32,000 bases of DNA from an uncultured Chloroflexia bacterium (lineage in GTDB: Bacteria > Chloroflexota > Anaerolineae > Anaerolineales > Anaerolineaceae). This document shows, in pieces, positions 2,114 through 23,225 of the stretch (within the stretch, counting starts at the first letter, position 1; each line of letters starts with the position of its first letter). A program made the position numbers and the translations under genes. The DNA is taken from positions 2,610,001 to 2,642,000 of the forward strand of contig OY969938.1 in assembly GCA_963704755.1 (NCBI GenBank), written 5' to 3'. A model generated the notes under the pieces. The model was not told the DNA's origin. It did not search any database and worked only from the letters and a program-made list of their open reading frames with translations.

Positions 2114-2917
2114 ATGAACGAAAATTTGACTCCTCGCGCTGATTCGACCCATTCACGGCGGTTGATCCGAAAGTCTGCGCCGCTATCCCCAGCAGTGGGT
2201 ATACTTCTTTTGGCCATCTTTTTCGGTTTTGGGGTAGGTACAGGTTACCTGGTCTGGGGCCGGCAGTTGGCCGCTGTCCAACTCCAATTAAGCCAGGCCA
2301 ACGGCAATTCAGCCGATAACCCGGTGGATGTGGCCCAACAAGGCACTGCGGATCCCAATGGAATCCAGCAGGTAACCCGCTACCCGGTCAGCGAGGATGA
2401 CGACCCGGTTTACGGGCCGGCCGATGCGCCTATTACGATCATCGAATTCAGTGACTTCGAATGTCCTTACTGCCTGAAATGGGAAAACGAAGTCTGGCCC
2501 CAGTTGAAAGAACAATACGCCGGGAAGATCCGCCTGGTATACCGCGATTTTCCGCTGGCCGGTCACGCCGATGCCAAACCGGCCGCCCTGGCCGCCGACT
2601 GCGCCAACGAGCAAGGCAAATACTGGGAATATCACGATTTGCTCTTCGATGGCGGCCTGACTCTCAGCCGCACTACGTATGAAACCTATGCCAGCCAGAT
2701 CGGCTTGAACATGGATAGCTTCCGCCAGTGTCTTGACGATCAGCGCTACGCCAGCGAGGTGGAGGGCGACCTGCAATACGCCGAAAACCTGGGGGTCCAG
2801 GCGACTCCCACCTTTTTCGTCAACGGCATCGCTGTAGTTGGCGCCCAACCCTTTGAAATCTTCAAAAATTTGATCGACGCAGAACTGGCCGGCAAACTTT
2901 CAAAGGGGACCAAATGA
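2114..2917 (+). CDS. Membrane-anchored DsbA-family thiol:disulfide oxidoreductase
   Basis: 267 aa. N-terminal TM helix (AVGILLLAIFFGFGVGTGYLVW), thioredoxin CxxC site FECPYC, and DsbA-like C-terminal half (GVQATPTFFVNG). Confidence 0.85.
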   Translation: MNENLTPRADSTHSRRLIRKSAPLSPAVGILLLAIFFGFGVGTGYLVWGRQLAAVQLQLSQANGNSADNPVDVAQQGTADPNGIQQVTRYPVSEDDDPVYGPADAPITIIEFSDFECPYCLKWENEVWPQLKEQYAGKIRLVYRDFPLAGHADAKPAALAADCANEQGKYWEYHDLLFDGGLTLSRTTYETYASQIGLNMDSFRQCLDDQRYASEVEGDLQYAENLGVQATPTFFVNGIAVVGAQPFEIFKNLIDAELAGKLSKGTK

Positions 2918-3576
2918 AAAAATTCATTGCCGTCGCCGGAAATATCGGCGTTGGCAAATCGACCCTGGTGCAGCTCTTGTGCGAACAGCTTGGCTGGGAG
3001 CCCTTTTTCGAGCCGGTCACCGGGAACCCCTACCTGGCTGATTTTTACGACAACATGTCCGCCTGGAGTTTTCATTCCCAGGTATTCTTCCTGACCCATC
3101 GCTTGCGCATCCACCAGCAAATTTTGCGCTTCGAAGGACCGGTCATCCAGGACCGCAGCATCTACGAGGACGCTGAAATCTTCGCTCACAACCTGGCCTT
3201 GCAGGGCAACATGAGCGAGCGTGATTACCAGACCTATTACGCGCTGTACCAGACCATTTCAGATTTTATTCCCCCACCCGACCTGGTGATTTACCTGCGG
3301 GCTTCGGTAAACACCCTCAAACAGCGCATTTCTCAACGCGACCGCTCCTACGAGCGGTCCATTTCTGCCGAATATTTAGGCGGCTTGAATGAGCTTTACG
3401 AGCAATGGATCCGCAACTTCACCATTTGCCCGGTCCTGACCGTGCCGGCCGATGACCTGGATTACGTCGCCCATCCTAATCACCTGGACCTGATCTTGAA
3501 GAAAGTGCAGGACAAACTCACCGGGAAAGAAGAAGTGGTCTTCCTGCCGGAAGAGATGAGCGAGCCGGAGATCTGA
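2914..3576 (+). CDS. Deoxynucleoside kinase (dNK family), paralog 1
   Basis: 220 aa. P-loop GNIGVGKST at the N-terminus, plus dNK-family blocks (FFEPV..NPYL..FY, DRSIYED, YLRASV..RISQRDRSYE). ATG 2914 overlaps the upstream stop (ATGA). Confidence 0.85.
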   Translation: MKKFIAVAGNIGVGKSTLVQLLCEQLGWEPFFEPVTGNPYLADFYDNMSAWSFHSQVFFLTHRLRIHQQILRFEGPVIQDRSIYEDAEIFAHNLALQGNMSERDYQTYYALYQTISDFIPPPDLVIYLRASVNTLKQRISQRDRSYERSISAEYLGGLNELYEQWIRNFTICPVLTVPADDLDYVAHPNHLDLILKKVQDKLTGKEEVVFLPEEMSEPEI

Positions 3577-3740: not shown

Positions 3741-4001
3741 TTAGCGAGGTTCGACAGTCAGCTTGATCGCTGTCCGCACTTTCCCATCAATGTCCACATC
3801 TACAAACTCGGGGATACAAACCACCGGTATGCCGTCTTCAGCTAGATAGCCTTTAGCCAACACCAACGCTTTGACAGCCTGATTTACGGCCCCTGCCCCA
3901 ATCGCCTGCACTTCGGCACGTTTATGTTCGCGTATTACGCCTGCTATCGCCCCTGCAACTGCAGCTGTTCGGGAGTTTGCTTTGACCTTGATGACGTCCA
4001 T
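3741..4001 (-). CDS. spoVS: Stage V sporulation protein S (SpoVS) family protein
   Basis: MDVIKVKANSRTAAVAGAIAGVIREHKRAEVQAIGAGAVNQAVKALVLAKGYLAEDGIPVVCIPEFVDVDIDGKVRTAIKLTVEPR is collinear with B. subtilis SpoVS as I recall it. The start was moved from the track's 4037 to ATG 4001 (86 aa), which has AGAAAGGAA upstream. Confidence 0.9.
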   Translation of the reverse strand: MDVIKVKANSRTAAVAGAIAGVIREHKRAEVQAIGAGAVNQAVKALVLAKGYLAEDGIPVVCIPEFVDVDIDGKVRTAIKLTVEPR

Positions 4002-4577
4002 GTCATGAATTCCTTTCTGTGATTGGTTCGATGTCAAGCAAACGATCTACGGAAATGTAATCATCTACTAAGTCTGTCGACATTGTACAAGAATTGCTAG
4101 ATAGTTACAAGTGCGCTGATAATGTACCAAAATATTACTATTCGTGATTCCATATGATGCAATAGGCTGCTTTCGTTCTTTTTTTTCCACAACCAGTAAA
4201 TTCTTAATCGTTTTTGCAGCCAGGCCCCTTTCTGCATAGTCTGGCCGGTATTTGCCTTCAAATCCAGGCAGGCCGGGTTGAAAAAACTGATTTGTTTTTG
4301 ACCAGGTCGATCCGCCAGTTGCAAAGTCCGTTTATCCGCATTTGCGCTGCGCTTCGATCACCAAAAATCCTGCACGTTTTGCTGTATAAGCGAGGTTCCA
4401 ACCCGGTGAACTGTTTTTCAACCAGAAAACAACCGGATCAGTCCAATTTCTGTTTAGAATTCGTCATAGCCGTAGCCATCCTTATCTTTATTTTGAATTT
4501 TAAGTTTGGCGGCCTGCTTTTGGGTTCATTATTCTTTCTCTTTATAAATATAAAGGAGTTGTAAACGTAGTAGGGGC

Positions 4578-4594
4578 TGTGGATATGTGGATAA
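4578..4594 (-). promoter_or_regulatory. Two abutting DnaA boxes (ATATCCACA and TTATCCACA on the minus strand)
   Basis: The plus strand reads tgtggataTgtggataa. It is preceded by GGGGC (4573-4577), TAGTAG (4568-4573) and the AT-rich tract. Confidence 0.6.
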
Positions 4595-4758
4595 AGCTGC
4601 GCAATTCAGTAATACCGGAATATATGGGGATCTCTAAATGGTTTACCCCCACTTCTAGGATAGAAAAACTGTTCCTTTATGAGAGCGAGCCTGTGGAGAA
4701 ATTTTTTCCAGAAAACACATTATCCACCTCCTCCACAGGGAAAATGATATACAGGCCT

Positions 4759-4800
4759 ACAAAGGCAGCGACCCCCATATATGGGGGTCGCTGCCTTTGT
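4759..4800. repeat. Perfect 40-42 bp palindrome inside the DnaA-box region
   Basis: caaaggcagcgaccccca-tata-tgggggtcgctgcctttg. Every position from 4760 to 4799 pairs with its mirror, checked base by base. Confidence 0.9.
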
Positions 4801-4833
4801 CTGGTAAAGAGTTATTCTGTTGTTTTTTCGAAG

Positions 4834-4883
4834 TTATCCACAGATCTACCTGTTTATCCACAGTTTTTGGCGAGTTATCCACA
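4834..4883 (+). promoter_or_regulatory. Three direct perfect DnaA boxes (TTATCCACAG x3) spaced 20 and 21 bp
   Basis: Read directly at 4834-4842, 4854-4862 and 4875-4883. The spacing is about two helical turns. Confidence 0.65.
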
Positions 4884-4940
4884 GGCCCGGGGAAAATAAG
4901 AACCTGGTGGGGAAAAACCGCCAGGCCGTATGTGGGTACC

Positions 4941-5954
4941 TTAAAGGCCATTTTCGCGGCTGAAACGGTCCTGGGTCTCTTCGACCACATCCAGATAAGC
5001 GTCCAGCGAATGGTAACGGGTTTCCATATTCTCAACGGATAGGCCAACTTCCCGGCAGGCATTCTGCCAGGTGGCCTTCAGCGGCGCTGTTTCGTCCAGA
5101 TTGGCGCTGGCATCCGTCCAGGTCCGCAGGATCAGCCACAGGGCCGAGGCAGGGTTCTCCCCCAGCAAAGCATCGGCGCCTTGATAGTAATAGGAATACC
5201 GTACCGCAGAAAGCCGTGGGGAGGCCTCGCTGTTCTCACCGGCTGCTTTGAGTGCATCCGACCAGTTGACCAGCCAGCCGCGGGCCGTCTCAGATTCGAC
5301 CTCACTGCCTTCGCCAGAGGTGAACAGGTCTACCAGTCCAGGCGCCAGTCCGGGCGCGCCGGCGGATTCAGCCCGCTCGGGAAATTGTAAAATGAAGCGC
5401 CTTTCGGTCAACGGTGCACCGCTCAAAAGCGCTACACTGTTGGCGGCATTCTCCAGGCAGGTCAGGTATTTGCTTATCTGGGCCGGGCTGCCCTGCGGCT
5501 TTTCTTCACTCAACTCCTGCCAGGCGCGCCGGGCCGCATCGGCCAACTTGCGCGCACGGGCGGAAATATATTCGGGGTTGTAAAATTGGGAGCTGGCGCT
5601 GGCCTGGATGAATTCGAACCAATGGCCTGCATCGAACAGGCAGACCGGCCCTTCGACCAGGTAAGTGCCCAGCCAGGGATCCTCTCGCAGCCGGCGAGGT
5701 TGGCGAAAGTTGCCCTCCGAGTAATGGGCAATGTCCAGGTGAACTTCATCGTTGAGACGGATGATCTCGCGTGGATAGGGGGGCTCACTGGTGTGAACGA
5801 AAACCAGGTCGATGTCGGTAGTGCCGCCCAGCAGCGGCTCGTCGCTCAGTAAAGAGCCGGTCAAATAGATGCAGACCAACCCTCGATCACGGCGGGCATA
5901 TTTTTCTACCGATTCACGGGCAACTTTGTGGAGAAGTTCTTTGGTGATGCGCAT
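4941..5954 (-). CDS. Nucleotidyltransferase-domain protein (Pol-beta superfamily NTase plus helical C-terminal region)
   Basis: 337 aa. The N-terminal LTGSLLSDEPLLGGTTDIDLVFV fits the G[SG]-x(n)-DxD minimal NTase motif. The rest is not recognised. Confidence 0.55.
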   Translation of the reverse strand: MRITKELLHKVARESVEKYARRDRGLVCIYLTGSLLSDEPLLGGTTDIDLVFVHTSEPPYPREIIRLNDEVHLDIAHYSEGNFRQPRRLREDPWLGTYLVEGPVCLFDAGHWFEFIQASASSQFYNPEYISARARKLADAARRAWQELSEEKPQGSPAQISKYLTCLENAANSVALLSGAPLTERRFILQFPERAESAGAPGLAPGLVDLFTSGEGSEVESETARGWLVNWSDALKAAGENSEASPRLSAVRYSYYYQGADALLGENPASALWLILRTWTDASANLDETAPLKATWQNACREVGLSVENMETRYHSLDAYLDVVEETQDRFSRENGL

Positions 5955-6001
5955 TTTATCCCCTTGACAGTTATATTATACCCGTTGAGAGAGACTGTGG
6001 A

Positions 6002-6658
6002 TTACTCGGCAATCCCATTGGAGGACTGCATAGGCAGTTCGGGTTGGAAAGGCGGCAGCTCAAGGGTTTGGCGGATGCGGTTCTCGATCCAATCCAGGTC
6101 GCGTGAATTGCGGACAAAGTCCAGCTCGTTCGATTCGATGACCAGTACGGGTCGCTTCGGCCGGCCGGTGATGTAAAAATCATCGTAGGCCTGGTTCAGC
6201 TCGACAATATAATCCTGCGCCATATTCCGCTCGTAGGGGCGGTCGCGTAAGGCGATCCGCTGCATGAGCACTTCGGTGCTGGCGCGCAGGTAAACCACCA
6301 GGGCGGGGGTGACCATTTTTTCGGCCAGCGCTTCGTGTACCCGGTAGTACATTTCCAACTCATCGCCCTGCAGGTTGGTCCGGGCGAATAAGGCGTCTTT
6401 TTCAAAGGTGTAGTCGCCGATCAAATTCGGGTTTTGTTCCAGCAGATTGGGGACATTACGGTTTTGCTGGTGGTAGCGGCTGAGCAGAAAGAAGATCTGG
6501 GTCTGGAAGGCGTAGCGGGCCCGATCCGCATAGAAATTGCTCAGGAAAGGGTTTTCTTCAAATACTTCAAGCAGCAGGTTGGATTCAAAACGCGGCTGTA
6601 ACAGGCGGGCCAGGGTTGTTTTACCCACTCCAATTACGCCTTCGATGGCAAAATACAT
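6002..6658 (-). CDS. Deoxynucleoside kinase (dNK family), paralog 2
   Basis: 218 aa. P-loop IEGVIGVGKTT, plus EENPFLSNFY, GDYTFEKD and YLRAS..RIALRDRPYE blocks collinear with paralog 1. Confidence 0.85.
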   Translation of the reverse strand: MYFAIEGVIGVGKTTLARLLQPRFESNLLLEVFEENPFLSNFYADRARYAFQTQIFFLLSRYHQQNRNVPNLLEQNPNLIGDYTFEKDALFARTNLQGDELEMYYRVHEALAEKMVTPALVVYLRASTEVLMQRIALRDRPYERNMAQDYIVELNQAYDDFYITGRPKRPVLVIESNELDFVRNSRDLDWIENRIRQTLELPPFQPELPMQSSNGIAE

Positions 6659-6737
6659 AATGGCTCCGTAACTTCACGACTTATCAGGATAATGGATTAT
6701 TTTTGGGATGCTATGGACCCCAAAACAAAACAACAAA

Positions 6738-7760
6738 TCAGTTGGCGCGGGTGAGCGTGGCCCGCAGAACCTGGCGGTCGATCCCGCCGAAGCGGTATTT
6801 GTATTCCTCGTCGCCGCGCATGAAGTCGAACTGGCAGCGCTTGTTCTCGTTAGCCCATTGCAACTCATAGCCCAATAAAACCCAACCCGGAGAGTAGTCG
6901 TTGAAGCGGCGGTCGAAGCCGGAGTTGTACACCCAGATGCGGTTGAGGTAGTCGAAACTGAGATAAGCGGCCGCTTTCTGCCCTTCGATTTCCAGGAAGG
7001 AAAGGTGCAGGCAGCCCTCATCGAAGGCGCAGTGGATAATTTCTGCGAGTGTCTCCCGCATCGGCGCAGTGAGGAAAGCCGCTTTTTCCTCGTCTTGCTC
7101 CATCAATGACAGGAATCCCTTGATCTCATCGTCCAGGGCGGCTTTGTCCTCGGCAAGGTACCAGCGGGCCGGAACCTCGGCAGCTTCGAAACGGCGCATC
7201 TTACGGCGGATCTCGTGGCGCTGTTTCTTGTCGATCGAGGTAAGGTAAGCCTCCCAGTCCCCCGGCAGGCTAATGTAGGGCGAATGCTGCAGGTCCGCCT
7301 GCTGATAATCCCAGCCCAGACGATTGGCGGTTTGCTGCAGGGCTTGCAGGCTGGGTGAGCTGTCCAGAAAATTGTACAGGTCCAGCGTCTGCCAGTCTGG
7401 CAGGCCGGCGCCTGGAAGGAAATCGAACAAGGCGTCCATGAAAGGCTGCAAATCGTCCGGGCGGACGATGAAATCGAGGTAATCTGAAATCTCGATACTG
7501 CCCAACAGCATCAGGCTGGGACGTTCCTGGTGATCGGGGGTATAGAAGAGGGGCGCGATGCCCACCAACTGCCCGTCCTGCCGCCCGCTGACCAGGGCCA
7601 ACTGGGCCTGCGGCCACTCACCGCCGCCGCGGCTCTTCCACCAGGCTTGCAGATATTCGTGACGCAAAAAAGGAACGTGCGATACGCTCTCTTCAAGCAG
7701 CGCGTTCCATTCCTGGCGGAGTTCATCTGGAAATGTTGTGTGTAAAGTTAGTTGTATCAT
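6738..7760 (-). CDS. GNAT-fold acetyltransferase, CelD/BcsL-like (FemAB-like) family
   Basis: 340 aa. The C-terminal block FDYLNRIWVYNSGFDRRFNDYSPGWVLLGYELQWANENKRCQFDFMRGDEEYKYRFGG matches the CelD-like GNAT family from memory. A TATAAT (plus-strand 7772-7777) lies 11 nt upstream of the ATG. Confidence 0.7.
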   Translation of the reverse strand: MIQLTLHTTFPDELRQEWNALLEESVSHVPFLRHEYLQAWWKSRGGGEWPQAQLALVSGRQDGQLVGIAPLFYTPDHQERPSLMLLGSIEISDYLDFIVRPDDLQPFMDALFDFLPGAGLPDWQTLDLYNFLDSSPSLQALQQTANRLGWDYQQADLQHSPYISLPGDWEAYLTSIDKKQRHEIRRKMRRFEAAEVPARWYLAEDKAALDDEIKGFLSLMEQDEEKAAFLTAPMRETLAEIIHCAFDEGCLHLSFLEIEGQKAAAYLSFDYLNRIWVYNSGFDRRFNDYSPGWVLLGYELQWANENKRCQFDFMRGDEEYKYRFGGIDRQVLRATLTRAN

Positions 7761-7850
7761 ACCAAAGCAAAATTATACCCTTAAGAGCAGGTGTTGAAAA
7801 ACACCTGCTCTTTTACGCCGGCTGGGTAGTTATGATTCGATATCGTATTT

Positions 7851-7884
7851 AAACAAAAAAAGGACGGTTATAAAGCCGTCCTTT
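7851..7884 (-). terminator. Intrinsic terminator of the ferredoxin gene
   Basis: The minus strand reads aaaggacgg-ctttataa-ccgtccttt followed by a T-run (ttttttgttt). It lies 24 nt after the ferredoxin stop. Confidence 0.7.
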
Positions 7885-7907
7885 GGAAACCGAAACAGGT
7901 TTTCAGG

Positions 7908-8078
7908 TTAGTCGGCGTGAACAGCGCCGGTCGGGCAAACAGCCTCGCAGGAGCCGCAATCCTGGCATTTGGAGGCGTCGATCACATATAAACCGTTAAC
8001 CTCAGCAATTGCTCCTTCGGGGCATTCGGGTTCGCAAGCGCCGCACTGGATGCAATCATCGGAAATTACGTATGCCAT
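7908..8078 (-). CDS. 2x[4Fe-4S] ferredoxin
   Basis: MAYVISDDCIQCGACEPECPEGAIAEVNGLYVIDASKCQDCGSCEAVCPTGAVHAD carries two CxxCxxCxxxCP motifs. The start was moved to ATG 8078 (GAAAGGA upstream). The track's N-terminal extension looks non-coding. Confidence 0.85.
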   Translation of the reverse strand: MAYVISDDCIQCGACEPECPEGAIAEVNGLYVIDASKCQDCGSCEAVCPTGAVHAD

Positions 8079-8240
8079 GGCTACTATCCTTTCTTGATGG
8101 TTAATAAATCCTGTCGTAATGTTACGATGCCAAGAATAACATATTCCATCCCCGGGCTGTAGCGGTCGTTTGTCATAAATTCGGGCAGAATAAGTCACAT
8201 TTGTAACAGGAGGAGTTACTACTCAGGTTAATTCGGGAAT

Positions 8241-8303
8241 GAGGGGTGTTTTTTATTGTTTTTCGCGTACGAAGTACGCGAAAAACAATAAAAAACACCC
8301 CTC
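8241..8303. repeat. 63-nt perfect palindrome (30-bp stem, GAA loop), family P1 copy 1
   Basis: gaggggtgttttttattgtttttcgcgtac-gaa-gtacgcgaaaaacaataaaaaacacccctc, with all 30 pairs checked. It lies between mrp-like and ferredoxin genes, both on the minus strand. Confidence 0.9.
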
Positions 8304-8359
8304 TCTTTGTGGCAACTGGGTAGTGACCAGGAGGATTATAAAACCTTTACGAGGAATGG

Positions 8360-9421
8360 TTATCCCGTGCGGATAGCCGCTACCCGCAAAATGCGCTCGA
8401 TCACCGGACCCAGCCCATCCATGTGGGCCTGCTCTACCTGGCCCTGGTCGCACAGGATCGTCAGGGCAGAATTGATCGGCAGCCGGCAGACTACCTCGGT
8501 GCCGGCCATTTCGGCGACTTCGCCGGCGTGGCTGGGACCAAATATCTCGTGCGGTGAGCCGCTATCCGGGCAGGTGTAATAGCTAAAGTTCTCCACGATG
8601 CCCAGGATGGGAATTTGCAAATTTTGCAGCATGTGCACGGCCTTACGCACTACCAGCGCCGCCAAGCCCTGGGGCGAGGTGACCAGCACCACCCCGTTGA
8701 GGGGCAGGTTTTGAATGACCGTAATAGCCGCATCCGAGGTTCCCGGCGGCAAATCCACCAGCAAAACGTCCAGCTTGCCCCACAGCACCTCGTTCCAGAA
8801 CTGGCGGATAACACCCGAGATCATCGGCCCGCGCCAGATCACGGCCGTGTCCTCCTCGGGTACCAGCAGGTTGGAAGAGACCACCCGGATGCCGCCGGGT
8901 GTAATCGCCGGCAGGATGCCCTGGTCGTTGCCGCGCAGCCCGCCGGCCGGCAGGTTGAACAGGCGCGGGATGCTCGGGCCGGTCAGGTCGGCGTCCAGGA
9001 TGCCCACTTTTTTGCCCTGGCGGGCCAGCTCCACGGCCAGCAAAGCGGTCACGGAAGATTTGCCCACCCCGCCTTTGCCGCTCATCACCGCGATGACTCG
9101 CTGGATGCGGTTAAAGATGTTCAATTTGGGTAACTGGGGAGCCGCCATGCCGATCACGGCCCGGCGCTCCTCATCGGTCATTTCGCCGTAGGTCACCTGC
9201 ACCTGGCTCACCCCCGGGTAGGCCTTGAGAAGCTGTTCGGCATTGAAGGCCATCTGGTCCTTGAGCGGGCAGTTCGGCGTAGTCAACGCCAGGGTAAAGT
9301 CAATTTTCCCGGACGGGTCGATTTTCAGGTCACGCACCATCCCCAGCTCGATCACGCTGCGGCCAAGCTCCGGGTCGACCACTTTTTTGAGGACTTCACG
9401 GACTTCCGATTCGCTAATCAT
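8360..9421 (-). CDS. Mrp/NBP35/ApbC-family Fe-S cluster carrier ATPase with N-terminal DUF59-like domain
   Basis: 353 aa. Deviant Walker A SGKGGVGKSS, an N-terminal MIP18/DUF59-like segment (VLKKVVDPELGRSVIELGMV), and family-typical ILDADLTGPSIP. Confidence 0.85.
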   Translation of the reverse strand: MISESEVREVLKKVVDPELGRSVIELGMVRDLKIDPSGKIDFTLALTTPNCPLKDQMAFNAEQLLKAYPGVSQVQVTYGEMTDEERRAVIGMAAPQLPKLNIFNRIQRVIAVMSGKGGVGKSSVTALLAVELARQGKKVGILDADLTGPSIPRLFNLPAGGLRGNDQGILPAITPGGIRVVSSNLLVPEEDTAVIWRGPMISGVIRQFWNEVLWGKLDVLLVDLPPGTSDAAITVIQNLPLNGVVLVTSPQGLAALVVRKAVHMLQNLQIPILGIVENFSYYTCPDSGSPHEIFGPSHAGEVAEMAGTEVVCRLPINSALTILCDQGQVEQAHMDGLGPVIERILRVAAIRTG

Positions 9422-9444
9422 CAGGCACCTCTATCTCTTCAATC

Positions 9445-10125
9445 TTAGCCCTTCATACCTAAAAACACGCCTACGAAGAAGTTCTTGTAAATGCAATCCA
9501 CGTTGTCGAAGCCGGCTTCTTTCATCCAGGCAATTTGATCGGCGAGCAGCGCTTCGCGATCGTAGGTCTGGCGGCGCTGGATGCCGGCCTGGATCCGGTC
9601 TTCGGGCTGGCCGCTGCTGCGCACCTGGTCCAGCCAGTGCTCCCAGTATAGCTTGCGCAGGTAATCGGTTTCACCTAACACCTGGTCGATGTTGACGAAT
9701 ACCCCAGGCGTGCCCAGGGTGGCGTAAACCTTTCGGAAAAGGGCCTGTTTTTCCCCGTCGGAAAGGTGATGGATCGACAGGCTGGATATCACCAGGTCGT
9801 ATTTGCGGCTGGCATCCAATTCGCGGTAATCGCCGAGAATCACCTCGATTTTTTGGGGAGTCGCCTGAAAGCGCAGGCGGGCCACATCCAGCATCTGATC
9901 GGCCAGGTCGTATAAGACGAAATGGGCGTGCGGATACTTTAGGGACACCTGCTGAGAGAACAGGCCGGTTCCGGCGCCCAGGTCGAGGACGGATAGTTTC
10001 GCCTGGGGGTCAAAGGGCAGCACGTCGATGCCGGCCTGGAACAGGTCGTGGAAGTTTGGCAGGGCTGCCTTCATCCAGGTGTCGTAATAGTCGATGGTGG
10101 CATTGAAAGCCTGGTCAATGGTCAT
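9445..10125 (-). CDS. Class I SAM-dependent methyltransferase
   Basis: The start was moved to ATG 10125 (MTIDQAFN..., 226 aa), which overlaps the pip stop as ATGA. Motif I is VLDLGAGTGLF. The track's longer N-terminus overlaps pip and is Arg/Cys-rich junk. Confidence 0.8.
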   Translation of the reverse strand: MTIDQAFNATIDYYDTWMKAALPNFHDLFQAGIDVLPFDPQAKLSVLDLGAGTGLFSQQVSLKYPHAHFVLYDLADQMLDVARLRFQATPQKIEVILGDYRELDASRKYDLVISSLSIHHLSDGEKQALFRKVYATLGTPGVFVNIDQVLGETDYLRKLYWEHWLDQVRSSGQPEDRIQAGIQRRQTYDREALLADQIAWMKEAGFDNVDCIYKNFFVGVFLGMKG

Positions 10126-11081
10126 GCGTTTTCTCCGGTAAAAAGAGCTTTTGAATCGTCCATTGCCTGGATAATCGCAGCGGTCATGCCCGGGTCGCTG
10201 GCAGTGTGGCCACCGTCGGGGACAAAAGTCAGCCTGGAATTGGGCATGGCTTCGTGCAAGGCCCAGGCATTGGCCGGCGGGCAAATCACGTCGTAGCGCC
10301 CATGGATGATGGCGCAGGGGATATGGGCGATCTTGAAAATATTTTCCAGGATGTAATTATCCGAGGGAAAGAACATCTTCTTGGAGATGTACAAATTCTC
10401 GAAACGGGCGATGGCCAGTTTGCTGTAAGGGTCGGCCGGCTCGCTGGGTGGTTGGGGCAGGTGATGCACGATACCGCCTTCCCACTCGCCCCAGGCCAGG
10501 GCAGCCTCCAGGTGGACGGAGGGGTCCGGATCGTTGAGGCGTTTGTAGAAGGCCGAAATCAGGTCACCGCGTTCTTCGGGTGGAATTGGCGCGATGTATT
10601 GTGGGTACCGGTCGGGATAAAAATACGAAGCGCCTTCCTGGAACAGCCAGCGGTTCTCCCATTCACGCCCGAGATAAACGCCGCGCAGCACTAACCCAAC
10701 CACTCGTTCCGGGTAAGCGATGGCGTAGCACAGCGCCAGCGTGCTGCCCCAACTGCCGCCGAACACCAGCCAGCGGTTAATTCCCAGGTGGGTGCGCAGT
10801 TTTTCAAGATCATCTACCAGCGCCCAGGTGTTGTTATCGCGGATCTCGGCGTAGGGGGTGCTCTTGCCGGCCCCGCGCTGATCGAAGAGCACGCTGCGGT
10901 AAAACTGTGGGTCGAAAAAACGGCGCGATTCGGCCGAAATACCTCCGCCAGGCCCGCCGTGTAAGAAAACGGCCGGTTTGCCGTCCGGGTTGCCACATTC
11001 TTCGTAATAGAGCGTGTGCAGCTCGGAGACAGGCAGCCGGCCGGTGTGGAAAGGTTCGATTTCTGGATAATAAGTAAGCAT
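10122..11081 (-). CDS. pip: Prolyl aminopeptidase (proline iminopeptidase, S33 family)
   Basis: 319 aa. Hallmark N-terminus ...LYYEECGNPDGKPAVFLHGGPGGG, nucleophile elbow GGSWGS, and full-length collinearity with Pip as I recall it. Confidence 0.9.
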   Translation of the reverse strand: MLTYYPEIEPFHTGRLPVSELHTLYYEECGNPDGKPAVFLHGGPGGGISAESRRFFDPQFYRSVLFDQRGAGKSTPYAEIRDNNTWALVDDLEKLRTHLGINRWLVFGGSWGSTLALCYAIAYPERVVGLVLRGVYLGREWENRWLFQEGASYFYPDRYPQYIAPIPPEERGDLISAFYKRLNDPDPSVHLEAALAWGEWEGGIVHHLPQPPSEPADPYSKLAIARFENLYISKKMFFPSDNYILENIFKIAHIPCAIIHGRYDVICPPANAWALHEAMPNSRLTFVPDGGHTASDPGMTAAIIQAMDDSKALFTGENA

Positions 11082-11173
11082 ATTGGTATTCCTGTTTGGC
11101 TATAATGAACGAGCGAATGGTCTCTAGGTTGATTTTACTCTTCCAAAATCAATATTGAAGACCATAAAATTTA

Positions 11174-11216
11174 GGGATATCGGATGAGGCGGTTTAGCCG
11201 CCCCATCCGATATCCC
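11174..11216. repeat. 19-bp-stem hairpin between the GGDEF gene stop and the pip start
   Basis: gggatatcggatgaggcgg-tttag-ccgccccatccgatatccc, with one mismatch. Confidence 0.7.
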
Positions 11217-11247
11217 CAATCTAGTTGCTGGAAACAAACCCTTCACT

Positions 11248-12726
11248 TCAGGAATCGATGGGATCCCATTGCAGCGGAGCGCTGATGTGAACCTGGTCTC
11301 CGCCCTGGCTCTTGCTGGTATACAGGGCTTCGTCGGCCCGTTGGATAAATTGGACCGCCATGGTTTCGAAATATTCCCCCGGGATGGGGTGCAGGCCGGC
11401 TTTGTTGGCGAGCAGGTTGGGCTCCAAAACGCACAGGCCGACGCTGCAGCGCAGGTATTCTTCGCCCTGGTGATCGGTCAGGCTTTTCCCGGCCAGTAAC
11501 TGGATAATCCTTTGCCCGACCACTTTGGCCCCTTCTGTCCCGGTTTGGGGCAGGATTACTGCGAATTCATCGCCGCCGTAGCGCCCGCAAACGTCGGTTG
11601 TGCGGGTGGCCTGGCGCAGCACCGAACCCACCGTCCGCAGGGCCTCGTCGCCGACCAGGTGACCGAACATATCGTTGATGCGTTTCAGCTTGTCCACGTC
11701 CACCATCAGCAGCGACATAATCTGGCGCGAGCGGAAAGCCGTCCGCAGCTCGCGGTAAAAGCATTTTTCCAGGAAGGGGCGCATGTATAGCCCGGTCAAC
11801 TGGTCGATGGTGGCCAGTTCGTACAACTGGGTATTTTGGATCGCCACGGCGGCCTGGTTGGCAAAGACCTCCAACAGTTCCTGGTCCTGGGGCAGGACGA
11901 CCTGGCGGTCCAGGTAGATCATCCCGATGGTCATATTGCCCACTTTCAGCGGCACCAGGGTGATATTGGGCAGCAGGCTCACCGTACCATGCCGCAAGGT
12001 TTTGTAAATGGTCTTCAGCCCCTCGTGATCCATGACTTCGCTGATCTTGGATTCGGTGTGGAACCTGCCGGTACTGGCCCGGATGATCAGGTCGGTATCT
12101 TCGTTGATCATCGCCAGAAAGCTTTCGGTTTGCTCATTGCCTCCCGGCAGGCGCACTCCACCTTCGTTGACCACCGCCAGGAAGGAGTTGACCACCCCCA
12201 ACAGGCCGGAGATCTGCCAGAGAATCCCCTGGAGCAGCTCGTTCAGGGACTGGATCTTGTGCATATCCGGGGTCACATCCAGGATGTACTGCAAACCCTG
12301 CCGGCTCTTGGTCAACAATTGGACCGTATAGGCTGATTTCAAGCCGACGTCGGTCCATAACAAGAACTTTTCCGGCCCTTCGGATTTATCGTAATAGCCC
12401 TGGATATCCAGCCGTTTCAACAGCTCGCGCGGTGGCTGTTCACTGGCGTAGCCGGTCTGCAAGATCACCTGCACCACCCCATTGAACTGTCTCAAGCGGG
12501 TGACCACGTCTTCTCCGGTCATGCCGGGCATATAGTAATCCAGAAGTAACAGGTCGACCTTTTGGCTCCTCAAGATATCCAAAGCAGCCGACCCGCTGTC
12601 AGCCGTCAGGACGATGTGTCCTTCATGCTCTAATAATTTTTGAGTCGCAAGCAGATATTCCGGATGGTCGTCCACTAACAGGATGGTATATCCGGAGGGG
12701 CTGGAAATATTTGTTTTACGGGCCAA
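11248..12726 (-). CDS. Response regulator with REC, GAF-like and GGDEF (diguanylate cyclase) domains
   Basis: 492 aa. REC domain (LLVDDHPE...LLLDYYMPGMTG), a central GAF-like region, and a GGDEF domain with RYGGDEF. An RxxD I-site (RTTD) sits five residues upstream of GGDEF. Confidence 0.85.
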   Translation of the reverse strand: MARKTNISSPSGYTILLVDDHPEYLLATQKLLEHEGHIVLTADSGSAALDILRSQKVDLLLLDYYMPGMTGEDVVTRLRQFNGVVQVILQTGYASEQPPRELLKRLDIQGYYDKSEGPEKFLLWTDVGLKSAYTVQLLTKSRQGLQYILDVTPDMHKIQSLNELLQGILWQISGLLGVVNSFLAVVNEGGVRLPGGNEQTESFLAMINEDTDLIIRASTGRFHTESKISEVMDHEGLKTIYKTLRHGTVSLLPNITLVPLKVGNMTIGMIYLDRQVVLPQDQELLEVFANQAAVAIQNTQLYELATIDQLTGLYMRPFLEKCFYRELRTAFRSRQIMSLLMVDVDKLKRINDMFGHLVGDEALRTVGSVLRQATRTTDVCGRYGGDEFAVILPQTGTEGAKVVGQRIIQLLAGKSLTDHQGEEYLRCSVGLCVLEPNLLANKAGLHPIPGEYFETMAVQFIQRADEALYTSKSQGGDQVHISAPLQWDPIDS

Positions 12727-14168
12727 TTGGGTTTACTCCTGAATCGGGGAAATGCAGCGTAAAGGTCGTGCCATGGTCAACACGGCTGTCGACCTGGATG
12801 GTGCCCCCGAACACATTGGTCATGATGTCACGGACGATGGTTAATCCCAACCCGGTGCCCATGCCGCTGGGCTTGGTGGTGAAGAGCAGGTCAAAAATCT
12901 TGGGTTGGATTTCAGGTGGGATTCCGGCCCCCCGGTCGGCGACCAACAGATCTATCCCTTCTGCCTGCGGTTCCAGTTGTAAGATGATCAGGGCATCCTC
13001 CTTGCCCGCACTGGCATCGATGGCGTTGGTGAGCAGATTGGTCACAATTTGCGAAAGCTGCCCGGGCAGGCCGAACAGCTCGATGGTATCGAATGGATAG
13101 TCGAACCGGACGGTGCAGTTGGCCGAGCGCAAGGCATGGTTGACGAGCAGCAGCAATTCCTGGATGACCGGCACGGCGTTGAACAGGACCCGGTCTTGGG
13201 GCACCACGTCATGGATTTGAGATTTTATCCCGCGCACGAACCCGGCGATACGCTCCAGCCCATTGCTCACCAGGGCGAGCGACTGGAGCATTTCCTGCCC
13301 AATTTCACGGTGATCCTGTAGATTTACCTGCGGATCCCCGATCGAAATCCAGGTACTCGTTGGCCAACTGGCCGATTTCGACCAGGGCCGCCCGCGAAGC
13401 CGCCAGGGGGGTATTGATTTCGTGTGCGATGCCGGCAGTCAGCCGTCCCAGGGTTGCCAACCGCTCGGACTTCAACAGCTCTTCGTGTTCGACCTGGATG
13501 GTATCGTAGGCTTTCTGAAGCTCTTGCGTGCGGTCCGCGACGCGTTCTTCCAGACGGGCCCGCATCAGCTCGAGATCCTGGTTAGTCTTTGAGAGGCCGG
13601 CCAGGCGGTCCTTTTCCACCTGGTTGCGGTAGAAGCCGGCCACGATGACTAGAGAGGAAATGGACAGGTTCAGGATGACCGGCGCAATTTGGCTGGCGAT
13701 GGTCATACCCTGGAAGGTGATAATTAATATATTGACCAGCAGGTTGAAAATACCCAGGCCGAACAAGACCTGGATAGAGAAAAACATGATGCAGACCTGT
13801 AAAGCGACGCAATTTGAAATGAGAATGATCGCCATCTCGCCGCTAACGAGCGGACCGCCGAACAACGTCAGTAAAACCGGTGCAATCGCCTGCAGGAAGA
13901 TCAACGCGCCGGCAGCCCAATGATAGCGGCGCGAACGGCTGATGCCATAGAGGATCAGGTAGGCAATTTCAACGAAAATAAGAAATTGCGGGGACGGAAA
14001 CGCCTCAATTTTAAAGGCAAAGATTAGCGGGAGGATTAAAACGATTAAAACCAGCAGGATAGTAGATATCAGGCGTGCCTGCCGGCGTTCGCCGGGCTGT
14101 TGGACTGCTTTGCCCGGTTCGACAGCCAGGTTCACCAGAAGCCGGGTCAGGCGGCTAGCAGAATCCAT
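12716..14168 (-). pseudogene. Membrane sensor histidine kinase interrupted by a +1 frameshift (or sequencing error) between the DHp and ATPase domains
   Basis: ORF 13305-14168 encodes multi-TM, coiled-coil and H-box (IAHEINTPL) segments and then ends. ORF 12716-13291 encodes HATPase_c (N-box TNLLTNAIDA, G-boxes DRGAGI and GMGTGLGL). Shifting one frame at the T3 run (plus-strand 13345-13347) gives a continuous ...LANEYLD/SIGDPQVNLQDHREIGQEMLQSLALVSNG... reading. Confidence 0.7.
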
Positions 14169-14290
14169 TGATTAAATTCCTGTAATCGGGCGGGGGAGCG
14201 GAGATAGGGCTAAATGATGAAGAGGATAAGCAGCGATCTCTCTATATTATATACATATAGTATAGGAAATATCTTGTTATTCTTGGCTCC

Positions 14291-14358
14291 ATCGAAGCAG
14301 AGGGATAAAAAAAATCGGGCGGTTATTCCGCCCGATTTTTTTATCCCTCTGCTTCGAT
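14291..14358. repeat. About 31-bp-stem palindrome whose right arm is the 3' end of the HAD hydrolase CDS
   Basis: atcgaagcagagggataaaaaaaatcgggcgg-ttatt-ccgcccgatttttttatccctctgcttcgat (A8 versus T7, so one bulge). The right arm encodes ...IEAEG-stop of the 14341-15048 gene. Confidence 0.85.
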
Positions 14359-15048
14359 TTTTTCTAGCAAATCAGGCAGCCCAAGCAAATTGGAAATCTC
14401 GAAGAAACGTGAGCGGTCTTCGGGTAAATCGGCCGCGGATTCGTGCGCCCAGCCGTTGGCGTAAGGGACATACACGGCGTAGGCGCCCAGCGCCAGCACC
14501 GGGGCGATGTCAGAGCGCAGGGAATTGCCGATCATCAAAAAGTGGGCCGGGTCGATGGCGTGCCGGGCCAGCATAGCAGCGTAGATCGGCTCGGTCTTAT
14601 CCACCAGGATTTCCACCGAGGGGAAATAGCCGGCCAATCCCGAGCGCTGCAGCTTACTCTCCTGGTCGAGCGTGTCGCCTTTGGTCACCAGCAGCAGACG
14701 GTGGTCCTGCAGGCGAGTCAGCGTTTCCTGCACCCCCTCCAGCAGGCGGATCTCGTGGCTGGTCATTTTGCGGCCCAATTCCACCATGGCCTGGATGTCG
14801 GTCGCGCGGACCTTTTCGCCCGTGACCTGGATGGCAGTTTCGATCAGCGAAAGGATAAATCCGCGGATGCCATACCCGAAATAGGCCAGGTTATCCACTT
14901 CGATGCGGTGCAGCACGTCCATGGCTGCTTCGGCCGAGACGCCGTAGGGTGACAGCAAAGCCGTAAAGTTCCGTTCTGTCTCACGATAATAAGGTTCGGT
15001 GTGCCAGAGGGTGTCGTCGGCATCGAACGCGATCGCATCAATTTTCAT
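14341..15048 (-). CDS. HAD-superfamily hydrolase
   Basis: 235 aa. Motif I FDADDTLWH (DxDxT), LVTKGD, and motif IV-like MIGNSLRSD. Confidence 0.8.
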   Translation of the reverse strand: MKIDAIAFDADDTLWHTEPYYRETERNFTALLSPYGVSAEAAMDVLHRIEVDNLAYFGYGIRGFILSLIETAIQVTGEKVRATDIQAMVELGRKMTSHEIRLLEGVQETLTRLQDHRLLLVTKGDTLDQESKLQRSGLAGYFPSVEILVDKTEPIYAAMLARHAIDPAHFLMIGNSLRSDIAPVLALGAYAVYVPYANGWAHESAADLPEDRSRFFEISNLLGLPDLLEKIEAEG

Positions 15049-15075
15049 TCGCCAAACCTCCTATTCGAAAATTAC

Positions 15076-15124
15076 TTTGGGTGTTTGTTTTGGGCGGCGT
15101 AGCCGCCCAAAACAAACACCCAAA
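15076..15124. repeat. 23-bp-stem perfect palindrome centred on GCGTAGC (family P2 copy 1)
   Basis: tttgggtgtttgttttgggcggc-gta-gccgcccaaaacaaacacccaaa. It lies directly upstream of the HAD gene start. Confidence 0.9.
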
Positions 15125-15190
15125 AATATTTTTGACCAAGCGCCAAGGTTTATTTTACCTCGAGAGCCGGGCGATTTTAGGCCATACGAG

Positions 15191-15362
15191 GGCGGATCAT
15201 CTATGTAGGGTGCGTTGATAACGCACCAATTTGTTTGGCTCCAAGCTGCTTCTTGGTTGAAAAAACCGTTTGGCCGAAATTTATCCGCTACCCCGTATAA
15301 ATAATTACAAAGCGTTTTGGTGCGTTGCCAACGCACCCTACATCCGCGCCGCACACGCGCCC
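15191..15362 (+). mobile_element. REPIN/MITE-like element copy 1 (two inverted GTAG-hairpin REPs about 110 nt apart)
   Basis: The left end is ggcggatcatctatGTAGggtgcgtt-gat-aacgcacc. The right end is ggtgcgtt-gcc-aacgcaccCTACatccgcgccgcacacgcgccc. The first 48 nt are identical to copy 2, and the interior is diverged. Confidence 0.65.
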
Positions 15363-15519
15363 GGTCTGAATGGCGTTGCCGGCGAAGCAGGCGGCTATTC
15401 AGCGTAGATGTGGAGATTGCTTTCTGCTTCACTCCTGCGCCGGACAGGGAAAATGTGGACCATGCCGATAAAGGCACCCATGCGGTTTATCTCGTCGCAC
15501 CGGCGAGCAGAACTTAACG

Positions 15520-20169: not shown

Positions 20170-21137
20170 TTTCCTCGGTTTAGAAACCCGAGCTACACAA
20201 TACCGTAGCCCGGCTTTCAAAGCCGGGGTCTGGAGACAGGCTTGGGTCTCGAATCCTGGTGATACCCCTCGGGTTAGAAACCCGAGCTACGTGCGGGTAC
20301 GTAGCCCGGCTTTCAAAGCCGGGGGGTCTGGAGACAGGCCTGGGACTCGAATCCCAGTGATACCCCTCGGGTTAGAAACCCGAGCTACGTGCCGGTACCG
20401 TAGCCCGGCTTTCAAAGCCGGGGGGTCTGGAGGCTGGCCCGGATGCCACCTTTCTGAGACGAGATTTCTGCAATTGTTAAACGCAAATCCTGGTGATACT
20501 ACACAATACCGTAGCCCGGCTTTCAAAGCCGGGGGGTCTGGAGGCGAGCCTGGGTCTCGAATCCCGGTGATACCTCTCGGGTTAGAAACCCGAGCTACGT
20601 GCGGGTACGTAGCCCGGCTTTCAAAGCCGGGGGGTCTGGAGGCGGGCCTGGATGCCACCATTCCGAGACGAGAAATCAAAAATTGTTAAACGCGAATCCC
20701 GGTGATACCTCTCGGGTTAGAAACCCGAGCTACGTGCGGGTACGTAGCCCGGCTTTCAAAGCCGGGGGGTCTGGAGGCGGGCCTGGATGCCACCATTCCG
20801 AGACGAGAAATCAAAAATTGTTAAACGCAAATCCCGGTGATACCTCTCGGGTTAGAAACCCGAGCTACACAATACCGTAGCCCGGCTTTCAAAGCCGGGG
20901 GGTCTGGAGGCTGGCCCGGATGTCACCTTTCTGAGACGAGATTTCTGCAATTGTTAAACGCAAATCCTGGTGATACCTCTCGGGTTAGAAACCCGAGCTA
21001 CATACCAATATCGTAGCCCGGCTTTCAAAGCCGGGGGGTCTGGAGACGGGCCTGGATGCCACCATTCCGAGACGAGAAGTCAACAATTGTTAAACTCGAA
21101 TCCTGGTGATACCTCTCGGGTTAGAAACCCGAGCTAC
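20170..21137. repeat. BIME-like mosaic array: 8 head-to-head REP-like hairpin doublets (…CTAC-N8-11-GTAG…) joined by short or long linkers
   Basis: Hairpin H2 (GTAG-cccggctt-tca-aagccggg) starts at 20205, 20301, 20400, 20511, 20609, 20744, 20877 and 21013. Hairpin H1 (ctcgggtt-aga-aacccgag-CTAC) precedes seven of these (it is absent before 20511) and one extra copy closes the array at about 21115. Unit lengths are 96-136 nt, not multiples of 3. Units 20576-20710 and 20711-20845 differ at 1 nt. Confidence 0.85.
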
Positions 21138-22059: not shown

Positions 22060-23225
22060 ATGTTCCAAGCCTCATCCTAATCCGCCAGGGCGTTTGCCTG
22101 CCTGCCGCGCCCCTCACCTGACCTCTCCCCGCCGGGAATAGGAATTTTGCCGCGAAGGTGAGGCCAATGACCGATGAACGCGCGAAGCCAACAAATTCTT
22201 GCTCCTTCCCCCTTTTAGGGGGAAGGCCGGGATGAGGGTCTGCGCCGGCCCGCCAGGGCGTTTGCCTGCCTGCCGCGCCCCTCACCTGACCGCTCCCCGC
22301 CGGGAACTTTTCCGCGAAGGCGAGGCCAATGACCGGTGAACGCGCGAAGCCAACAAATTCTTGCTCCTTCCCCCTTTTAGGGGGAAGGCCGGGATGAGGG
22401 TCTGCGCAGGCCCGCCAGAGCGTTCGCCTGCCGGCTGCGCCCCTCACCTGACCTCTCCCCGCCGGGGACTTTTCCGCGAAGGTGAGGCCAATGACCGATG
22501 AACGCGCGAAGCCAACAAATTCTTGCTCCTTCCCCCTTTTAGGGGGAAGGCCGGGATGAGGGTCTGCGCCGGCCCGCCAGGGCGTTCGCCTGCCGGCTGC
22601 GCCCCTCACCTGACCTCTCCCCGCCGGGAACTTTTCCGCGAAGGTGAGGCCAATGACCGATGAACGCGCGAAGCCAACAAATTCTTGCTCCTTCCCCCTT
22701 TTAGGGGGAAGGCCGGGATGAGGGTCTGCGCCGGCCCGCCAGAGCGTTTGCCTGCCTGCCGCGCCCTTCACCTGACCTCTCCCCGCCGGGAATAGGAATT
22801 TTGCCGCGAAGGTGAGGCCAATGACCGATGAACGCGCGAAGCCAACAAATTCTTGCTCCTTCCCCCTTTTAGGGGGAAGGCCGGGATGAGGGTCTGCGCC
22901 GGCCCGCCAGGGCGTTTGCCTGCCGGCCGCGCCCCTCACCTGACCTCTCCCCGCCGGGGACTTTTCCGCGAAGGTGAGGCCAATGACCGATGAACGCGCG
23001 AAGCCAACAAATTCTTGCTCCTTCCCCCTTTTAGGGTGAAGGCCGGGATGAGGGTCTGCGCAGGCCCGCCAGGGCGTTTGCCTGCTGGCCGCGCCCCTCA
23101 CCTGACCTCGCCCCGCCGGGGACTTTTCCACGAAGGTGAGGCCAATGATTGATGCATGGGTAACGCCTACAAATTCTTACTCCTTCCCCCTTTTAGGGGG
23201 AAGGCCGGGATGAGGGTCAACGCAG
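22060..23225. repeat. Seven tandem copies of a 162/168-bp structured repeat
   Basis: Units start (ccgccag...) at 22082, 22250, 22412, 22574, 22736, 22904 and 23066. Each contains the hairpin ccttccccct-ttt-agggggaagg, the motif ccgggatgagggt, and an 8-bp long-range stem cctcacct...aggtgagg that encloses tcccc-gcc-gggga. Confidence 0.9.

Follow-up and report, generated by a model that had tools for sequence, protein, structure and literature searches.

Is a dense cluster of DnaA boxes with neither dnaA nor dnaN nearby a chromosomal replication origin (oriC), or is it a DnaA-binding site of the datA/DARS kind? The question is raised by an intergenic region of 939 nucleotides (nt), positions 4002–4940 of a 32-kb stretch of Anaerolineae DNA (hereafter the window, whose numbering is used throughout unless a locus label is given), for which the original prediction had offered both readings. 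We propose, at a probability of about 0.82, that the interval 4480–4885, between spoVS and a nucleotidyltransferase-like gene encoding a 337-amino-acid (aa) protein, is the chromosomal oriC of this Anaerolineae bacterium, unlinked from dnaA. This reading is supported by a match to a published unwinding module, by class-wide conservation and by a local skew minimum, whereas a datA/DARS-like site is less favoured because it would explain neither the conserved unwinding module nor the skew switch. The site is most likely an origin of the canonical DnaA-dependent type in a little-studied class, and dozens of related species share its layout.

For comparison, one genome per species was scanned with an alignment of the 337-aa protein family, yielding 80 Anaerolineae loci (labelled L plus a number) whose proteins share 39–56% identity with that of the window and which are distinct from the source genome. 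In 46 of these loci, the intergenic region is bounded by both the 337-aa gene and spoVS.

DnaA boxes and the proposed unwinding module

Perfect TTATCCACA boxes occur only four times in the 32 kb, all between 4586 and 4883, one on the minus strand (4586–4594) and three on the plus strand (4834–4842, 4854–4862 and 4875–4883). The box scan thus returned the three direct and one inverted copies that had been noted from the letters alone, and the five 8/9 matches listed with them, starting at 4183, 4332, 4578, 4692 and 4720, were likewise all found in place. Dinucleotide shuffles of the window contain on average 0.14 perfect boxes, with a maximum of 2, compared with the 4 observed. Boxes with at most one mismatch number 16 in the window against 4.46 expected, 9 of the 16 lying inside the 939-nt region, and simulations with the dinucleotide composition of the region itself give 0.009 perfect and 0.25 near-perfect boxes against four and five observed. 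The cluster is therefore as far from chance as first claimed, and the region shows one hallmark of an oriC, several TTATCCACA-type boxes clustered in a non-coding stretch of a few hundred bp.

The three perfect direct boxes (4834–4883, plus strand) start 20 and 21 nt apart and face a pair of tandem boxes at the other end of the cluster. Between the two groups, a pair of one-mismatch boxes, TTCTCCACA on the minus strand (4692–4700) and TTATCCACC on the plus strand (4720–4728), face each other, and relatives carry boxes at equivalent positions. All 46 intergenic regions bounded by the 337-aa gene and spoVS have a perfect box, and most loci have 2–7 of them between the end of the 337-aa gene and spoVS. 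Boxes in a 19–23-nt register are also widespread, with at least three in 39 of the 46 relatives and at least two in all 46.

At the end of the cluster nearer to spoVS, four elements follow one another. The tandem boxes (4578–4594, minus strand) consist of TGTGGATAT on the inner side (4578–4586, 8/9 matches) and TGTGGATAA on the outer side (4586–4594, 9/9), with one base shared. They are followed leftwards by a GC cluster, GGGC (4574–4577), and by four DnaA-trio-like repeats on the plus strand (4562–4573), namely TAA (4562–4564), ACG (4565–4567), TAG (4568–4570) and TAG (4571–4573), the last two of which become 3'-GAT-5' when read from the boxes. This order had been recognized correctly in the original prediction, but its GGGGC at 4573–4577 takes the first G from the last TAG. 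Beyond the trios lies an A+T-rich tract (4480–4561), the proposed DNA unwinding element: as anticipated, 4480–4560 is 70% A+T compared with 44% window-wide, and 4525–4554, which is 24 nt from the tandem boxes, is the seventh least stable 30-bp stretch of the 32 kb (top 0.1%). A second hallmark of an oriC, an A+T-rich element adjoining a DnaA box, is thereby present in sequence terms.

This module is conserved across the class. Over the 27 nt TAGTAG-GGGC-TGTGGATA-TGTGGATAA, the window is identical to the family consensus at 27/27 positions, and the module, called in whole loci at up to 6 mismatches, occurs once per locus in 64 of the 80 loci. The remaining 16 loci score 7–11 mismatches, only L021 being a near-miss at 7, and seven of the 16 are contigs that end less than 800 nt from the 337-aa gene. 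Among the 46 intergenic regions bounded by both genes, the 27-nt string is found with at most 7 mismatches in 40, while a 1-nt insertion or deletion sets the remaining six apart. TAGTAG is nearly invariant and is preceded in 40 of the 46 relatives by a 3-nt periodic run, such as GAT TCG TCG TAT TAG TAG; the GC cluster reads GGGC, GGCC or GGAC, and the DNA 30–50 nt from the trios is 71–80% A+T. Relatives also keep the full order of A+T tract, trios, tandem boxes, middle boxes, a hairpin and three boxes spaced 20–21 nt apart. Furthermore, the module persists beside the 337-aa gene in 15 loci without spoVS, persists beside spoVS in two loci in which the 337-aa gene sits 4 kb away (L045 and L061), and is found with altogether different flanking genes in the metagenome contig L081. 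Its retention when either neighbour is missing or distant argues that the module belongs to neither of them.

The order of box, GC cluster, trios and A+T tract, which had been likened to that of the Bacillus oriC, indeed matches the published entry for B. subtilis, AATAGGTGT TTAGGTGT CCGG GAT GAT AAT (Table S1 of PMC8287927); in the same notation, the window reads AATAGGTGT ATAGGTGT CGGG GAT GAT GCA AAT. The rules published for this basal unwinding system (BUS; PMC8287927) call for a box with at most 2 mismatches and an optional second box no more than 3 bp away, a spacer of at most 16 bp from the first box to the first trio and at least three consecutive 3'-NAN-5' trios. In the window, the boxes are TGTGGATAA with 0 mismatches and TGTGGATAT with 1, sharing one base, and the spacer is 12 nt long, made up of the 8-nt second box and the 4-nt GGGC. 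The two box-proximal trios are the consensus GAT. Among the 40 relatives whose module lies within 7 mismatches of the consensus, 22 have 3–7 consecutive trios and 18, counted with the window, have 1–2.

Since the module nearly matches that of B. subtilis, we propose a Bacillus-type route of origin opening. DnaA-ATP would first fill the high-affinity boxes, that is, the three direct boxes (4834–4883), set two helical turns apart, and the opposed tandem pair (4578–4594), while the weaker middle boxes (4692–4728) would help the oligomer to assemble. From the tandem pair, the DnaA oligomer would extend across GGGC onto one strand of the trios (TAG TAG, 4568–4573), whereupon the adjacent A+T-rich tract (4480–4561) would open, the helicase would be loaded there and forks would leave both ways. 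DnaA binding, unwinding and firing at this site are what we infer by analogy with the B. subtilis and E. coli models.

Strand asymmetry, gene direction and dnaN linkage

Within the window, the local cumulative G–C skew is lowest at nt 4486, on the margin of the A+T-rich tract. Of 33 relatives that have 6 kb on each side of the module, 21 have their minimum no more than 500 nt from it and 27 no more than 1 kb from it, while none of the 33 has a cumulative maximum there. To the left of the module, the mean top-strand skew of open reading frames (ORFs) is −0.039 for those on the plus strand and −0.035 for those on the minus strand; to the right, the respective values are +0.013 and +0.040. On each side the sign is the same for both strands, indicating that it follows position and not the direction of transcription, as expected at an origin. 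This side dependence holds more than 3 kb from the module. We therefore rejected the possibility that the switch is a composition artefact of the conserved flanking genes, as the sign tracks side and not strand and persists at that distance.

The absence of dnaA and dnaN from the surroundings, stated at the outset, was confirmed for the window by tblastn with E. coli DnaA, a query validated against Pfam, and E. coli DnaN, and the Pfam annotation of the window genes agrees. In 12 relatives, however, dnaN lies 2.5–9 kb from the module, with no fixed side or orientation, where about 0.5% would be expected by chance. In a thirteenth locus (L015), dnaN is near the 337-aa gene and the contig ends before the module. 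Examples are L045 18436–19557, a match confirmed by Pfam, L039 13836–14957 and L038 7701–8822, with 10 other loci making up the set. No dnaA was found in any of the 80 loci. As dnaA is not beside dnaN in any dnaN-bearing locus, the usual dnaA–dnaN pairing is broken in this group, and the picture that emerges is of an origin that has parted from dnaA and, in the genome at hand, also from dnaN.

Several observations weigh against an origin at 4480–4885. Neither dnaA nor dnaN is present over the 4.6 kb to the left and the 27 kb to the right. The flanking genes are head-on to departing forks, which is unusual for an origin: all genes in 4941–15477 are on the minus strand, and in relatives the share of ORFs pointing toward the site is 72% to one side and 57% to the other. 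The head-on caveat, already raised for the window, is therefore real and extends to relatives. The A+T tract ranks just seventh in the window for low stability, and the trio run of the window, GAT GAT GCA AAT, contains two consecutive trios only, short of the three in the BUS rules, because the third trio, ACG, departs from NAN. Finally, six of the 33 relatives have their local minimum away from the module, as does L081, whose local skew shows no switch at the module and which stands as a counter-example. In our assessment, the direction of the flanking genes does not outweigh the remaining evidence.

Some of these same points would fit a secondary or relic origin-like cluster, with the active origin elsewhere on the chromosome, for example beside dnaA; the window without dnaA and dnaN, the genes converging on the site and the imperfect third trio are all compatible with it, as is the additional, denser box array that some relatives carry at a distance of 5 kb. 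We nevertheless consider a relic improbable. It would not be expected to show nucleotide-level conservation in 64 of 80 species, nor to lie where the local skew is minimal, as is the case in the window and in 27 of 33 relatives, and for a complete genome the DoriC database gives what is probably the homologous site as the origin.

A locus for DnaA titration or recycling, comparable to datA, DARS or the B. subtilis clusters, would control initiation elsewhere and would not itself be unwound. Dense intergenic boxes of high affinity, remote from dnaA, are what such a locus would offer, and three boxes in a 20–21-nt register resemble a titration array. Yet trios, a GC cluster and an A+T tract are not needed for titration, and the module that they form is the most conserved part of the region; a strand-independent skew switch is not expected either. 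In sum, titration as the role of the window site is quite improbable, and oriC remains the preferred reading.

The terminator-like hairpin, the flanking genes and the spacer

Inside the box region of the proposed origin, a perfect 21+21-nt palindrome with the core CCCCCATATATGGGGG (4759–4800, minus strand) has a predicted folding energy of −43.5 kcal/mol. In 14 species, its six core pairs are invariant and four outer pairs are kept through two-sided changes in 3–7 species. Most relatives have a T-run after the hairpin on the minus strand, the strand of the 337-aa gene, and the hairpin lies 170–190 nt from the tandem boxes. Given the covarying outer pairs and the T-run on that strand, the hairpin is probably the intrinsic terminator of the 337-aa gene, placed inside the origin, in which case the three direct boxes would lie in the 3' untranslated stretch of this gene.

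A ATATATGGGG half-motif occurs 26 nt to the right of the tandem boxes (4620–4629, plus strand). The motif ATATGGGG shows a 42-fold enrichment in 45 homologous intergenic regions, where it returns 20–30 nt past the tandem boxes at fixed offsets. Judged by sequence, the core CCCCCATATATGGGGG and the half-site at 4620–4629 are conserved far beyond the needs of a terminator. It is conceivable, if doubtful, that the hairpin and the half-site together form a lineage-specific control element of the origin, which would either bind an origin factor or couple initiation to transcription of the 337-aa gene. If so, a gene read through the three-box array and ending inside oriC, with genes converging on it, would be a layout undescribed for model origins.

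The boxes could alternatively belong to a DnaA-controlled transcription region that regulates spoVS and/or blocks read-through from the 337-aa gene and has no role in replication, as might be suggested by their position, with the putative spoVS promoter to one side and the 3' end of the 337-aa gene to the other, and by the three boxes that lie between the 337-aa stop codon and the terminator hairpin, but this is very improbable: the module persists in the 15 loci that lack spoVS and in L081 with its entirely different neighbours, 370 nt separate the promoter from the A+T tract and trios in the window, and the skew switch and the dnaN linkage would be left unaccounted for.

Both flanking genes lie outside the proposed origin. 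On the left, spoVS (3741–4001, minus strand; Pfam SpoVS, E-value 1e-34) is a conserved neighbour in 46 of the 80 related loci. A consensus scan places a promoter-like site on its strand at 4082–4110, where TTGTAA and TACAAT are separated by 17 nt (9/12 matches); its ATTGTACAAG motif recurs in 18–20 of the 46 homologous intergenic regions, and the site would act as the spoVS promoter. On the right, the 337-aa gene (4941–5954, minus strand) is conserved, matches no Pfam family and, in most relatives, is found linked to the origin. Among the 1758 homologues of its product, every named one is from Anaerolineae or Chloroflexota. The AlphaFold model (pLDDT, the predicted local distance difference test score, of 88) shows a nucleotidyltransferase fold with a helical domain, and its best Foldseek matches are to kanamycin nucleotidyltransferase (E-value 5e-5, TM-score 0.4–0.5). 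A profile search of the PDB gave no match for the family, and the nucleotidyltransferase assignment came from the fold comparison alone.

The intergenic region is 939 nt long here compared with about 500–600 nt in relatives. The extra DNA, absent from relatives, is a lineage-specific spacer, about 370 nt long, that separates the putative spoVS promoter from the A+T tract (4111–4479) and carries two one-mismatch boxes on the plus strand (4183–4191 and 4332–4340). One long frame with a single stop runs through the spacer; a decayed gene was considered and dropped, as neither DNA nor translated searches of the 80 loci gave a match and Pfam gave none. The ORFs of the gap (4097–4324, 4214–4564 and 4579–4899) match no Pfam family and lack counterparts in relatives, and the 106-aa frame at 4579–4899 was rejected as coding on these grounds. 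The description of the gap as lacking a credible coding sequence is thus upheld. Neither Rfam, searched at the gathering threshold and again with a permissive E-value, nor ARAGORN returned an RNA gene.

Further features were noted around the site and in its relatives. Deoxynucleoside-kinase paralogues flank the origin at 2914–3576 (plus strand) and 6002–6658 (minus strand), and genes of this type also adjoin it in L031 (11915–12577) and L081 (5863–6513). Farther away in the window are two tandem-repeat arrays, one at 20173–21137 with a period of 98/135 nt and 4–5 copies, which contains GC-rich, hairpin-like units, and one at 22082–23218 with a period of 162 nt and 6.9 copies that are 93% identical, which can also be read as a repetitive ORF of 371 aa on the minus strand. 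Some relatives have a second array of 7–12 perfect TTATCCACA boxes (L031 16691–17134, with 12 boxes; L050 16733–17220; L058 8823–9385; L064 12770–13060), located some 5 kb past spoVS with an ArsR-type regulator and a P-type ATPase to one side and a glycosyltransferase to the other. Their boxes share one orientation but for one box in L064, and many are 21 nt apart. These second arrays, which may be titration arrays, lack the tandem-box/GC/TAGTAG module, and none was found in the window.

Comparison with known origins and titration sites

No described origin of an Anaerolineae species was found in the literature searched, and DoriC already predicts one at what appears to be the homologous site. 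For Anaerolinea thermophila UNI-1, DoriC entry ORI94030346 is a predicted oriC with a weak module call at positions 420–460 (Table S1 of PMC8287927). Its 40-nt string is identical at 39/40 positions to L081 6999–7038 (OGCI01000999.1). A metagenome scan with a 36-nt A. thermophila string gave no match, and a 23-nt string led to L081; the trio stretch of L066 also matches part of the DoriC string. In L081, the string is directly preceded by AAATCCACA-TATCCACA-CCCT with the trios CTA CGA TTA alongside (6978–7038), the same hairpin and three-box array follow further along, and a 337-aa homologue is nearby. Because the string abuts tandem boxes, GC cluster and trios, the DoriC origin of A. thermophila is very probably the same locus as the window site. 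The published finder seems to have taken the wrong box there, a two-mismatch box on the other strand instead of the tandem boxes. The DoriC locus is a computed prediction in another species and, judged by L081, it differs from the window site in its flanks, a deoxynucleoside kinase and a restriction-modification-like pair without spoVS. In L081, this restriction-modification-like gene pair (7101–8706) adjoins the A+T side of the origin.

The window site marks the likely start of replication for a class of abundant, slow-growing and mostly uncultured Chloroflexota, and would be of use for orienting genomes, for estimating growth rates from read depth in metagenomes and for designing vectors. 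It also suggests that the unwinding-module call published for A. thermophila should be corrected. Testable leads on how origins are regulated in this group come from the conserved hairpin, from the ATATGGGG motif and from the second box arrays of some relatives.

The proposed origin shares features with several known systems. The E. coli oriC, between gidA and mioC, is likewise unlinked from dnaA, and its neighbour mioC is transcribed toward the origin, as is the neighbouring gene in the window. It also has its unwinding element at one end beside a TGTGGATAA-oriented box and opposite boxes at the far end, and the three-box array of the window faces the tandem pair as R4 faces R1. Unlike the E. 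coli oriC, the window site has no GATC clusters or 13-mer repeats, its far end consists of three boxes in a 20–21-nt register, and a conserved terminator hairpin lies within its box region. In cyanobacteria such as Synechococcus elongatus, oriC adjoins dnaN and dnaA is elsewhere. The separation from dnaA is alike in the Anaerolineae, 12 of which have dnaN 2.5–9 kb away, whereas the window lacks it.

Dense, high-affinity, intergenic boxes away from dnaA are shared with E. coli datA and the DnaA-box clusters of B. subtilis. Those sites lack a trio/A+T module and lie off the skew switch, whereas the window site has such a module and lies at a local skew minimum, and its conserved trio/GC/A+T module sets it apart from the datA/DARS class of box clusters without an unwinding module.

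The closest parallel is the B. subtilis BUS, with boxes 6 and 7, a GC cluster, trios and an A+T-rich 27-mer (PMC6669920, PMC8287927), although the two origins differ in setting: the B. subtilis oriC is bipartite and flanks dnaA, whereas the window site is a single block with neither dnaA nor dnaN nearby, and the third trio is ACG in the window where B. subtilis has a longer uninterrupted run. Order and orientation of the elements are alike in the two. Both have a perfect outer box, an 8-nt inner box with a shared base, a 4-nt GC cluster and two GAT trios, and the box-to-trio spacer is 12 nt in the window as in the B. subtilis listing (PMC8287927). The 9+8 arrangement of the tandem boxes is common to the window, B. 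subtilis and Geobacter. A Bacillus-type unwinding module is thus preserved nearly to the letter in a phylum far from that of Bacillus, although the proposed origin is separated from dnaA.

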